From Nanohaloarchaea archaeon B1-Br10_U2g1 (GTDB taxonomy: Archaea; Nanohalarchaeota; Nanosalinia; Nanosalinales; Nanosalinaceae), in NCBI GenBank assembly GCA_001563875.1, contig LKMN01000001.1, positions 32,001-96,000 on the forward strand: a stretch of DNA of 64,000 nt, given 5' to 3'. Both the position numbers and the translations under genes were made by a program. The notes below the pieces were generated by a model, which was given only the letters and a program-made list of their open reading frames with translations, was not told the origin of the DNA and searched no databases. Of this stretch, positions 41,277 through 44,022 are shown in pieces (position 1 is the first letter of the stretch; each line of letters opens with the position of its first letter).

Positions 41277-41780
41277 TTACTCAAAGGCGAGCTGGTATTT
41301 CTCTCCTGTTACTTCGTCGATGATCTCTTCGAACTCTCCGACGGATAGGTTGATTTTTCCTTCGTAGTCGTCGTCTACAACGATCTTCTTACTCTGTCCT
41401 TCAGGTGAGAATACTGTGTTGACGGACTCTACTTCTGCCGGTGAGAGAAGTCCTTTAATGGTCTCTATATCTTCTGGAGCCTTCTCTACCACTCTTATTG
41501 ATTTATCGACCTGGTCTGCTATCTTCTTGACAATCTCTCCACTTCTGCCGACTACTTTAGCGCCGTCACCTTCCTCTGTAATGATTACGATGACGTTATC
41601 CATGTCGAAGATTTTAAGAATTTCTGAGTCTCTGAGAGATGCGTGTTCTTTGCTCAGATCTTGGAGTATACGAGATACCTCTACATCTGTCTCTGTTATC
41701 TCGCCATTTTCCAGTTTATCCTCGCACCCGCTACAGAGCACATCACTCTTTAGACATACATTACATATTGGAGCCTTCAT
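41277..41780 (-). CDS. NusA-like KH protein with N-terminal Zn finger
   Basis: PICNVC..LCSGC, KH loop VVGRSG. Confidence 0.8.
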   Translation of the reverse strand: MKAPICNVCLKSDVLCSGCEDKLENGEITETDVEVSRILQDLSKEHASLRDSEILKIFDMDNVIVIITEEGDGAKVVGRSGEIVKKIADQVDKSIRVVEKAPEDIETIKGLLSPAEVESVNTVFSPEGQSKKIVVDDDYEGKINLSVGEFEEIIDEVTGEKYQLAFE

Positions 41781-41874
41781 ACAACAGTTTGGCACTGTCA
41801 AGAATTAAATAGTTGAGGAGAGAGATCTTCCTTTCTCCAAGCTTTGCTCAAAGTCTACTTCTAACCTGTTGTAG

Positions 41875-42384
41875 CTAAAAATCTGTCTTTCTGTAAGTCA
41901 TGCTCACAATGTCGTACAATGATGCGGCAGTTAACGCTGCCAACCCGTAGAAAAGGAAATAGACGTTTACAGAATAAAGTATAAACCCTATAGAGAGCAT
42001 AACTAGTCGAGCCTCATGACCTATAACCGGTTGAACCGTCTCTCTCAACTCCTTAATGAAGCCGTTTCTAACAGTGTAAGTCATGAGAACTGCTGCTATA
42101 GATAAGGCTTTGAGGTAAGGAGGTATTATAGGTGAGAGAACTGCTCCAAAAATAAGGATTGATTCATAGAATGGAGGTAGTAAAACAAGCATTATACGCG
42201 TGTTTGATGTTTTACCAGTCTTCCTAGATTCTTTGAAACATAGACGGGATGAAAAGAGGACTCCGATAACAAGAAGCCCGCTCAGAGCCGAAGTATGTCT
42301 GCCAGGATGGTTTAACATCAGAGCTGAAAATATAGATAAAACCAGTGTCAAAACAGCATAGAGATGTAATCGGTTGTAATTCAC
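41875..42384 (-). CDS. Membrane protein (possibly degenerate CDP-alcohol phosphotransferase fold)
   Basis: Five to six TM segments; no DG-x-AR catalytic motif. Confidence 0.6.
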   Translation of the reverse strand: MNYNRLHLYAVLTLVLSIFSALMLNHPGRHTSALSGLLVIGVLFSSRLCFKESRKTGKTSNTRIMLVLLPPFYESILIFGAVLSPIIPPYLKALSIAAVLMTYTVRNGFIKELRETVQPVIGHEARLVMLSIGFILYSVNVYFLFYGLAALTAASLYDIVSMTYRKTDF

Positions 42385-42426
42385 GTGTTCAATTCTTTAG
42401 AACCAAAGTTTTACCGTTTTCGGTGC

Positions 42427-42448
42427 AGAGAAAAATAAAAAGAAAATA
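42427..42448 (-). terminator. U-rich terminator of ftsZ
   Basis: Minus strand TATTTTCTTTTTATTTTTCT directly after long stem. Confidence 0.6.
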
Positions 42449-42560
42449 CAGACCTCCGTTAAGGGGGGGAGGGGAGTGTTCTTTGAAGACCGACGGGGTT
42501 TAATGTTTTCCATCGGCCTCCAAGGGGACGGAGGTCTGAGGGGTATTAAAGGGGGAAATA
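42449..42560 (-). ncRNA. Structured C-rich ftsZ 3' element
   Basis: 11 bp outer stem CAGACCTCCGT/ACGGAGGTCTG, 14 bp inner stem with three G-U pairs on minus strand, unpaired C tracts. Confidence 0.6.
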
Positions 42561-42573
42561 TAAATTGTGAATA

Positions 42574-43635
42574 TTATTTCATAACCTCGAGACCGAGATC
42601 GTTTACGTCGCTTACCTCGGCTTCTTGTTCTTCTTCAACTTCTCCAAGCACGTAAGGAGATTTTACGCCGGTTATAATCGATATTACCTGAAGTTTGCCT
42701 TCCAGTTCTTCTCTAACTCTTGCGCCCCAGATTACTTGTGCTTGAGGGTCAAGGTTGTTTTGAACTGTTTGGCCTACTGCGTTGATTTCATTCAGTGTTA
42801 GGTCTTGTCCGCCCGCTACGTGTAGGAGGGCTCCGTTTGCACCGTCGAACTCTACGTCGAGCAGAGGGTTTGATAGTGCTTCATGGATTGCTTCTTCTCC
42901 TTTGTTGTTTGTGTCGCTTTCTCCGTATCCTACTACTGCGACGCCTCCTTCGTTCATGATTGCTTTGACGTCTGCGTAATCTAGGTTGACCAGTGAAGGT
43001 TTGCTGATTGTTTCTGTTACTCCTTTGATCATGGTTGTGATCAGTTCATCTGCAACTCCGAATGCTTGGTCTAGCGGCATATCTCCAGCGATATCGAGTA
43101 GTTTGTCGTTTTCGATTACGATTGCTGTGTCTACGTGCTGTCTTAGTTTGTATAGCCCTTCTTCTGCTTTGCTCATTCTTGCGCCTTCTATTTCGAAAGG
43201 CATGGTTACTGTTCCGATTACGATACAGTCTTCTTTTTTAGCGATTTCTGCTAGAACTGGTGTAACTCCTGTTCCTGTTCCTCCTCCTAGTCCGCATGTC
43301 AGGAAGACCATGTCTGCGTCTTTGAACAGGTTTCTTAGCTCTGCACGGTTTTCTTCTGCTGCTCGTGCTCCTTTTTCTGGATGTCCTCCTGCGCCAAGTC
43401 CTTTTGTCAGGTCTCGTCCTACTAGGATTTTTCTGTCTGCTGAGGACATTTCTAGGTGCTGTTTATCTGTGTTGATTACAACTGTCTCTGCACCTTCTAC
43501 ATCTTTCTTTTGGATACGTGTGACTTGGTTGTTGCCTGCGCCTCCGGCACCGACTACCAAGATTTTAGCATCTTTTACGTCGTCCAGATTTTGAACGTCT
43601 TTTTCCGACTTCGTATTATTGATTATTGATTCCAT
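42574..43635 (-). CDS. ftsZ: Cell division protein FtsZ (FtsZ2-like)
   Basis: GAGGAGNN, NTDKQHL, GGGTGTG, NLDYAD. Confidence 0.97.
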   Translation of the reverse strand: MESIINNTKSEKDVQNLDDVKDAKILVVGAGGAGNNQVTRIQKKDVEGAETVVINTDKQHLEMSSADRKILVGRDLTKGLGAGGHPEKGARAAEENRAELRNLFKDADMVFLTCGLGGGTGTGVTPVLAEIAKKEDCIVIGTVTMPFEIEGARMSKAEEGLYKLRQHVDTAIVIENDKLLDIAGDMPLDQAFGVADELITTMIKGVTETISKPSLVNLDYADVKAIMNEGGVAVVGYGESDTNNKGEEAIHEALSNPLLDVEFDGANGALLHVAGGQDLTLNEINAVGQTVQNNLDPQAQVIWGARVREELEGKLQVISIITGVKSPYVLGEVEEEQEAEVSDVNDLGLEVMK

Positions 43636-43685
43636 TTGAACACCACGGCATCAGTATGCCTAACTTTTTTAAAGCGGCATATCTA

Positions 43686-43842
43686 ATTCTACCTTAGAAT
43701 AAGTCAAATTCAAGCCCAACTTGAATGCCCAAATGTGATTTCGGATTCAACGCCCAAATCGAATCCGGTTCGATCATACTCGCGCCCAAACGAGTGTTGA
43801 TCAGTAGTCTCGAGTTCGTGGCCCAACACGAACACAAGATTA
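43686..43842 (-). ncRNA. Array of UUGGGC-loop hairpins upstream of ftsZ (5' leader or sRNA)
   Basis: Five TTGGGC motifs; four cap stems of unrelated sequence; G-U pairs valid only on minus strand. Confidence 0.7.
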
Positions 43843-43870
43843 ATGTTATATTCTAACCTTTAGTTGCCTA

Positions 43871-43884
43871 GTTTATAAAAGTTT
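43871..43884 (-). promoter_or_regulatory. TATA box for ftsZ leader RNA
   Basis: Minus strand AAACTTTTATAAAC about 30 nt before first hairpin. Confidence 0.6.
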
Positions 43885-44022
43885 GTCTTACTTCGTACAA
43901 TCCAAGCTGTTCAATGTCTTTGAACAGTTACTGTTCATAACCGTTCATAGAACCCATATTTTTGCACTATGCTGTTTCCACTTATGGTTACAAAAAGCTT
44001 TATTACACCAAACATTCTTAGG

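Follow-up and report, generated by a model that had tools for sequence, protein, structure and literature searches.

The question raised by this locus is whether the cell division gene ftsZ of a nanohaloarchaeon is controlled through RNA elements at both ends of its messenger. The locus lies in a window of 64,000 nucleotides (nt), the whole stretch of DNA that was analysed, from Nanohaloarchaea archaeon B1-Br10_U2g1 (contig LKMN01000001.1, positions 32,001 to 96,000), whose genome (G000) comprises 710 kb in 26 contigs and is 97% complete. The original prediction was that one transcript would carry five GGG-containing motifs before ftsZ and a similar number of C-tracts after it, that the two could pair with each other or compete for protein, and that this RNA array takes the place of cdrS, the ribbon-helix-helix gene preceding ftsZ2 in haloarchaea. 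Both features are far beyond chance and are conserved in relatives, and the 5' array is very probably a functional RNA structure of the ftsZ sense strand. The gene and the elements of the array are as follows (stems in base pairs, bp).

42574–43635, minus strand: ftsZ, 353 amino acids (TIGR00065 396.3 bits, E 1.4e-118, above the curated cut-off of 295 bits)
43814–43833, minus strand: hairpin H1, 7-bp stem, loop UUGGGC; 3 of 4 modelled pairs compensatory
43778–43795, minus strand: hairpin H2, loop UUGGGC on a 6-bp stem closed by a U-G pair
43742–43767, minus strand: hairpin H3, loop UUGGGC on a 10-bp stem that includes two G-U pairs; compensatory change in 8 of 9 modelled pairs
43727–43732, minus strand: motif 4, UUGGGC with only 2 flanking bp in the window genome
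43708–43726, minus strand: hairpin H5, 7-bp stem, loop UUGGG

Both the reading of the sequence and the listing of open reading frames (ORFs) place ftsZ on the minus strand, with its 5' end at 43636 or higher and its 3' end at 42573 or lower, so that the two sides had been assigned correctly. The five GGG-containing motifs were also found as described: TTGGGC occurs five times on the ftsZ strand within 113 nt (43714–43719, 43727–43732, 43752–43757, 43784–43789 and 43821–43826), four of the copies standing at hairpin tips. Three are 6-nt loops of hairpins of 6–10 bp, a fourth is at the tip of a 7-bp hairpin, and one has a stem of 2 bp. The whole window includes 12 copies on both strands against 14 expected from shuffles, and five of these 12 are in the array, on one strand. 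Hairpins with a TTGGGC loop and a stem of at least 5 bp were present only in this array in the entire 710-kb genome. In H2 the inner stem ACUCG/CGAGU is nearly invariant among relatives and the outer pairs covary, a GAUC/GAUC extension being possible; the G-U pairs of H3 become A-C mismatches if read on the opposite strand; and the orthologues of H5 have other stems, for instance of the type GAGUCUU-GGGC-AAGACUC.

The comparison covered 30 loci of the same family, further contigs and 16 genomes from the four other families of the phylum, altogether 59 loci after deduplication, among which L068 and L124 are the same stretch. At least one GGG-tipped hairpin of at least 5 bp was present in 58 of the 59 loci over five families, and at least two in 56. 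Four hairpins (25 loci) or three (19 loci) were the most common numbers, followed by two (nine loci), one and five (two loci each), and six and none (one locus each). The stems vary between lineages, and the tips keep GGGC, commonly as UUGGGC: GGGC was found in 176 of 193 tips, GGGA in 15 and GGGU in two. Variant loops are CGGGCA or a GGGC tetraloop closed by U-A in some lineages, GUGGGA in one genus group, and UUGGCG in a single genome of family f2 (L110).

The positions from −300 to −50 of the 59 loci hold 296 GGG runs versus four CCC runs. When hairpins were anchored on the GGG runs, with no selection for pairing and with the 3' flanks shuffled among occurrences as a control, 65% of the runs stood at the tip of a hairpin of at least 5 bp versus 16% (maximum 22%) with shuffled partners. 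RNAalifold applied to a MAFFT alignment of 21 loci recovered H1–H3 with 10 of the 20 pairs compensatory. The covariance model R1, built from this alignment, found 33 of the 59 loci (E up to 0.01), every match being on the ftsZ strand. In the alignment of these 33 matches 96.1% of the cells were paired and 15 of the 20 pairs were compensatory, values reached by none of 500 shuffles, and pairing fell to 21–47% when the partners were slid by one to three columns; this alignment is model-fitted and so biased to structure, and the unfitted GGG-anchored and 21-locus tests agree with it. Among the interior non-Watson-Crick pairs of 114 distinct hairpins, G-U occurred 39 times versus eight times for A-C, and the folded strand is therefore the sense strand of ftsZ.

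The region after the stop codon contains a second element, of which the following parts were distinguished.

42540–42555, minus strand: two C-tracts, CCCC and CCCCC, after the stop codon and ahead of the closing helix
42449–42538, minus strand: 3' structured element with a perfect 11-bp closing helix (42449–42459 with 42528–42538)
42428–42448, minus strand: U-rich tract directly after the closing helix, with a T-run of at least five on the coding strand, as in archaeal oligo-T terminators

Six runs of at least four C (C4+) are present on the ftsZ strand, where they appear as G-runs of the plus strand (42463–42469, 42471–42474, 42495–42498, 42524–42527, 42540–42543 and 42551–42555), a number similar to that of the 5' motifs, as had been foreseen. 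The closing helix encloses a 14-bp inner hairpin (42483–42523) and the unpaired tract CCCCUCCCCCCC (42463–42474), with z = −4.1. Many relatives have a second C-loop hairpin at the position of the two C-tracts (42540–42555), and in many genomes of the family two such hairpins stand in tandem. The U-rich tract is the probable end of ftsZ transcription, and T-rich stretches after the 3' element are also present in the family alignment.

The tract CCCCUCCCCCCC, together with an ACAC prefix, is nearly invariant across the family, and the helices enclosing it differ in sequence; RNAalifold also found the closing helix, in which 5 of 9 pairs show compensatory change. In family f4, which the first search pattern missed, there are instead several small 3' hairpins with loops of the type UUCCCCC(C)ACA. 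Over 53 loci the downstream region has 3.8 C4+ runs per locus versus 0.28 runs of at least four G, and in minimum-energy folds of these loci 87% of the C-run bases are unpaired versus 47% of all bases. Within the window genome, counts of C4+ runs in the 150 nt after the stop codon of 692 crudely called genes gave six for ftsZ, two for the next best and none for 633 genes.

Two further tests of the C-rich region were set aside. A genome-wide ranking by density of G3 or C3 runs did not discriminate, the 3' element being one of nine scanned windows with at least six runs and the array one of many with five. A test for helices enclosing the C-tracts within a reach of 45 nt gave 83% versus 55% with shuffled sequences, a weak result as the GGAGG/CCUCC arms are shared. 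Also other C-rich tracts of the genome, near an nrdR-like ORF, a large upstream ORF and a dnaK/dnaJ-like pair (labels from the translations), were rejected as short and unrelated. Short hairpins with C-rich loops, CCCCCUCCCCC and CCCCUCCCC, were observed at C16:114069 (−) near the nrdR-like ORF and at C16:23481 (+) after a 463-amino-acid ORF, respectively, both outside the window or at its edge.

Both elements are conserved and restricted to one gene. A scan of 70 genomes of the phylum with R1 gave exactly one match per genome in 35 of them, and each of these matches lies immediately before this ftsZ; the genomes without a match belong to lineages with variant loops or architecture. The 13-mer CTCCCCTCCCCCC of the 3' element had 27 exact matches in 24 of the 70 genomes, all on the strand of this gene and at most a few hundred bases 3' of it. 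Chained pairs of TTGGGC were present at the upstream region of this gene in each genome, and the remaining copies were singletons at control frequency, with the exception of one cluster: three TTGGGC in the f3 genome G051 (contig C103:2523-2605, minus strand), away from ftsZ2. Viral contigs gave at least 120 pattern matches, and none of 80 viral loci with three spaced TTGGGC fitted R1. At gathering scores Rfam 15 found only two tRNAs in the whole window, and a permissive scan of 42350–44000 (E up to 10) gave three chance-level matches, none above 17 bits against gathering scores of 39–80. Neither element is described in the literature searched on nanohaloarchaeal and archaeal ftsZ, untranslated regions (UTRs) and non-coding RNA.

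The genome has a second FtsZ paralogue on contig C4, 49% identical to the window ftsZ, which precedes ORFs read from translation only as secE-, nusG- and rpl11-like, a neighbourhood that we take to be the FtsZ1 context. In comparison with FtsZ1 of Methanocaldococcus jannaschii (PDB), the C4 paralogue scored 364 bits over 274 residues versus 356 bits over 310 residues for the window FtsZ, and is thus the closer of the two per residue. Because of this context and the higher per-residue score of the C4 paralogue, the window ftsZ is considered, by elimination, to be of the FtsZ2 type. A protein search for a named FtsZ2 reference gave only unnamed or generically named nanohaloarchaeal FtsZ matches, and locus L076 of a Methanosarcinales metagenome-assembled genome proved to be FtsZ1-like. 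Separately, the C4 paralogue has an in-frame TAA after '...GIEGC' (L002:2404-2406, minus strand), which splits it into ORFs of 65 and 301 amino acids and is absent from the sister genome G001; a real nonsense mutation, variation within the population and an error of assembly are all conceivable. According to a preprint by Liao, DPANN archaea encode both FtsZ families.

The absence of cdrS was borne out. None of the 70 genomes passed the cut-off of 100 bits of the CdrS equivalog NF058555, the best score being 38.8 bits and none of the candidates adjoining ftsZ2, and the positive control Haloferax volcanii passed it. This agrees with Darnell 2020 (PMC7439475), which reports CdrS from every major archaeal group but DPANN. 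Both elements, without cdrS, co-occur in nearly all loci, as the original prediction had proposed for comparison across genomes. That the array stands in place of cdrS is on the other hand a positional analogy, and only the absence part of this statement is upheld. The only ribbon-helix-helix candidate of the window genome is a 46-amino-acid ORF on contig C9 (L035:1492-1632, plus strand), which has the CdrS model as its best NCBIfam match (20.4 bits to NF058555), lies near neither ftsZ and may be a distant small regulator.

Whether the array is transcribed together with ftsZ depends on the promoter-like signals around it.

43905–43937, upstream of the distal box: overlapping TGTTCA/TGAACA palindromes (inverted repeats I6 and I12), candidate transcription-factor site
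43872–43879, minus strand: palindromic distal TATA-like box TTTATAAA, a possible promoter for the transcript with the array
43687–43699, abutting the proximal A-box: palindrome TTCTA-N3-TAGAA, near-invariant in the family alignment, candidate transcription-factor site
43665–43673, minus strand: proximal TATA-like A-box (TTTAAAAAA on the gene strand), 30–38 nt ahead of the ATG; a short ftsZ mRNA may have its core promoter here

With the search patterns TTTATA[AT], TTTATAT or ATTAATAA, a distal TATA-type box was found in 54 of the 59 loci, 49 of which have the exact octamer TTTATAAA. It lies mostly 50–60 nt before the first GGG tip, a spacing tighter than that to gatC, the gene on the other side. 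The proximal A-box is conserved in 55 of the 59 loci, 30–60 nt before the ATG. TTTAWA boxes of the window genome peak with the first T at −32 to −28 from start codons, and most genes therefore look leaderless. By this spacing the proximal box would give a leader of 6–14 nt and the distal box one of about 215 nt containing the array. Upstream of the distal box, GTGAAC-AG and TGTTCA blocks recur in the 30-locus family alignment. The proximal A-box was also considered as an RNA loop and dropped, stems of at least 5 bp occurring in 55% of 55 loci versus 43% (maximum 55%) with shuffled partners.

Runs of at least five T (T5+) between the distal box and the ATG were present in only four of 54 loci versus a shuffled mean of 14.0 (minimum 5 in 500 shuffles). 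The corresponding A5+ runs occur in 51 of the 54 loci, the avoidance thus being confined to the sense strand. Together with the G-U bias, the T5+ depletion is evidence, at the level of sequence, for sense transcription that crosses the array and continues. Among the sequencing runs listed for this locus none was of RNA. In a run labelled metatranscriptomic but judged to be probably DNA (X9), contigs of relatives were observed over the coding region only, and a 431-nt contig ends 17 nt before the ATG; this contig, single and of low depth, was not used as evidence.

The reading that we favour is that the region upstream of ftsZ2 would encode a structured RNA running in the same direction, with three to six hairpins whose paired stems are free to vary and whose tips are GGGC. 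This RNA would most likely start at the distal TATA-like box, which precedes the ATG by about 240 nt, and would most likely continue into ftsZ2, because the T-runs that stop archaeal RNA polymerase are avoided; the result would be a long-leader mRNA isoform, perhaps accompanied by a short one that starts from the proximal box. The tips of the hairpins would be multivalent sites for a trans-acting factor, most likely a protein, setting the translation or stability of the ftsZ2 mRNA, and the 3' hairpin or hairpins, with their large unpaired C-rich loops before the U-tract, would form a second binding platform and the end structure of the transcript. The statement as a whole, an ftsZ2 leader of multivalent factor-binding hairpins together with a 3' C-loop element, we judge to have an even chance of being correct.

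Several points weigh against it. In conservation the proximal A-box equals the distal box, and its placement suits a near-leaderless ftsZ mRNA, so that the array may be missing from the main ftsZ mRNA. Scored with a promoter matrix derived from the genome, the flanks of the distal box came out lower in the sense direction (mean −1.03) than in the antisense direction (−0.15), sense being the better in 16 of 49 loci. The 3' helices carry no strand signal (G-U 8 versus A-C 10). The set of 114 hairpins behind the G-U count of the array was initially picked under a rule that admitted G-U pairs on the sense strand alone, and the loci are related, so that the counts overstate independence. The zinc-ribbon/KH (NusA-like) protein encoded two genes 3' of ftsZ, a conceivable binding factor, is of a family that each of the four archaeal control genomes also encodes and is thus non-specific. 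We infer the start, end and continuity of the transcript from sequence patterns. As for the RNA-level control that had been predicted, the 5' array does behave as sense-strand RNA, and it is the binding factor and the regulatory outcome that we infer.

Part of this evidence could also be accommodated if the array were a separate small RNA gene upstream of a real, proximal ftsZ2 promoter, acting in trans or by promoter interference, with the 3' element as a structured terminator or as the source of a small RNA from the 3' UTR. The two conserved promoter-like boxes, the near-leaderless spacing of the proximal one and the U-tract that ends the 3' element would all suit this arrangement. It is nevertheless distinctly unlikely: in 50 of the 54 loci neither a T5+ run nor anything else that looks like a stop separates the array from ftsZ2, neither element ever leaves ftsZ2, and the search of the window genome for a partner in trans found no second copy, no GCCCA cluster and no row of GCCC-tipped hairpins elsewhere. 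It is very unlikely that the elements act as DNA, the array as operators or cruciforms and the G-rich template strand of the 3' element as a quadruplex or protein-bound transcription stop. True palindromes with conserved arms do lie nearby (TGTTCA/TGAACA and TTCTA-N3-TAGAA), and the 3' helices are without G-U bias, but the arms of the array vary and covary around a fixed centre, the reverse of protein operators, and both its excess of G-U over A-C pairs and the avoidance of T-runs, with A-runs retained, distinguish the strands. That the GGG tips of at least four hairpins form a potassium-dependent G-quadruplex, through which the leader senses intracellular salt, is highly improbable. At least four GGG runs are present in the array region of 53 of the 59 loci, and acidic proteins among the ORF translations suggest to us a salt-in organism; against this, the loops of one family (L110) are UUGGCG and lack GGG, the GGG runs number only three in five loci, and the G-runs are 25–40 nt apart and kept at hairpin tips.

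Pairing between the ends, as originally proposed, would have the G-tips of the leader bind the C-loops of the 3' element of the same mRNA, loop to loop or loop to tract, joining the ends and setting translation or decay. What stood of this is that the G-tips are in loops and the C-runs predominantly unpaired, so that both are exposed for binding, that each side is strongly asymmetric between strands, and that the two elements share one gene, to which both are confined, and are found together in nearly all loci. Short G-C contacts would, by our reasoning, also be favoured by molar intracellular salt, and according to PMC2636863 translational control in haloarchaea requires a functional interaction of the 5' with the 3' UTR. 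The pairing itself did not fare as well: complementarity is limited to GGG versus CCC, the 3' region is not marked by the exact complement GCCCAA, and C-runs are followed by T in 136 cases, by A in 44 and by G in 19. By crude duplex energy the array with its own 3' region ranks 384th of 692, the GGGA and GGCG variants (the genus group and L110) are not matched by changes in the C-tracts, the 3' element carries no strand signal, and the model assumes both ends to be on one transcript. Such pairing is therefore unlikely. A bolder version, in which CdrS is replaced in Nanohaloarchaeota by a two-ended ftsZ2 riboregulator, is to be regarded as speculative and improbable; here the G-tips and C-loops would contact by salt-stabilised G-C kissing or by one bridging protein with G-loop- and C-loop-binding modules, closing the mRNA and gating FtsZ2 synthesis and division. 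The zinc-ribbon/KH protein would be the obvious bridging candidate, but because its family is present in all the archaeal control genomes it is a lead only.

If the favoured reading of a multivalent leader is true, the array would be a rare long regulatory leader in a lineage with mostly leaderless-looking mRNAs. DPANN archaea are tiny host-attached cells with genomes of 0.7–1.3 Mb, and they are without CdrS, the only archaeal regulator so far known to be devoted to ftsZ2. An RNA structure found throughout the phylum, supported by covariation and belonging to a single gene would offer a concrete handle on the timing of their division, and the hairpin arrays flanking ftsZ2 are likely to represent RNA-level control of division previously undescribed in Rfam and in the literature searched.

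Among known systems, iron-responsive elements and CsrA-binding leaders may be seen as formal analogues of the array. Iron-responsive elements are hexaloop hairpins with a CAGUGN loop and a C bulge, several per UTR, bound by one protein. The array resembles them in repeating, several times per mRNA, a hairpin whose six-base loop is fixed and whose stem is free, and elements can be at either mRNA end; it differs in having UUGGGC rather than CAGUGN, no conserved bulge and an archaeal host, and no Rfam match to an iron-responsive element was found at E up to 10. The CsrA/RsmA leaders and the CsrB/RsmZ sponge RNAs carry many G-rich motifs, A(N)GGA, at the hairpin tips of one RNA. Also in the array many G-rich tips are present on one RNA, implying multivalent binding, but the tips are mostly GGGC (176/193) and not A(N)GGA, and CsrA (PF02599) was not found in the window genome at E up to 0.1, with positive controls. 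RsaE/RoxS of Firmicutes are trans-acting small RNAs whose C-rich (UCCC) loops target Shine-Dalgarno sequences. The 3' element shares with them unpaired C-rich loops able to pair with G-rich sequence, whereas its C-loops are in the 3' region of one archaeal mRNA and have no Rfam match.

The cdrS-ftsZ2 operon of Halobacteria and other Euryarchaeota, described by Darnell 2020 (PMC7439475) and Liao 2021 (PMC8406309), likewise has a dedicated control element immediately upstream of an FtsZ2-type gene, but there a co-transcribed small ribbon-helix-helix protein acts on transcription, whereas here the element consists of non-coding covarying hairpins. The work in PMC2636863 resembles the present case in that both ends of an archaeal mRNA are needed together, end-to-end contact here being a proposal; no defined structural motifs are known to us from it. 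If the two ends of the ftsZ2 messenger do communicate, they would provide the first defined structural basis for interplay between archaeal 5' and 3' UTRs.

The genes around ftsZ are kept in the same order (gatC, ftsZ, membrane protein, zinc-ribbon/KH protein and a 594-amino-acid ORF) in nearly all relatives, the zinc-ribbon/KH gene being directly 3' of ftsZ in two of them (L061 and L069).

Beyond the array side, divergent from ftsZ: gatC, the first in the gene order
41875–42384, directly 3' of ftsZ: gene of a 169-amino-acid membrane protein
41277–41801, two genes 3' of ftsZ: gene of the zinc-ribbon/KH protein (PF13184; NF005013 142 bits, below the cut-off of that model)
After the zinc-ribbon/KH gene: 594-amino-acid ORF, a candidate ABCE1-like ATPase as read from its translation alone

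The membrane-protein and zinc-ribbon/KH genes together span 41277–42384. The membrane protein belongs to no Pfam or NCBIfam family, and its Atlas matches are all below 0.9. Its gene has a box of its own of the type GAAAA-N-GTAAAAC (42408–42424, minus strand), about 30 nt before the GTG start, a position that would fit a leaderless mRNA, and this motif is also seen in relatives.

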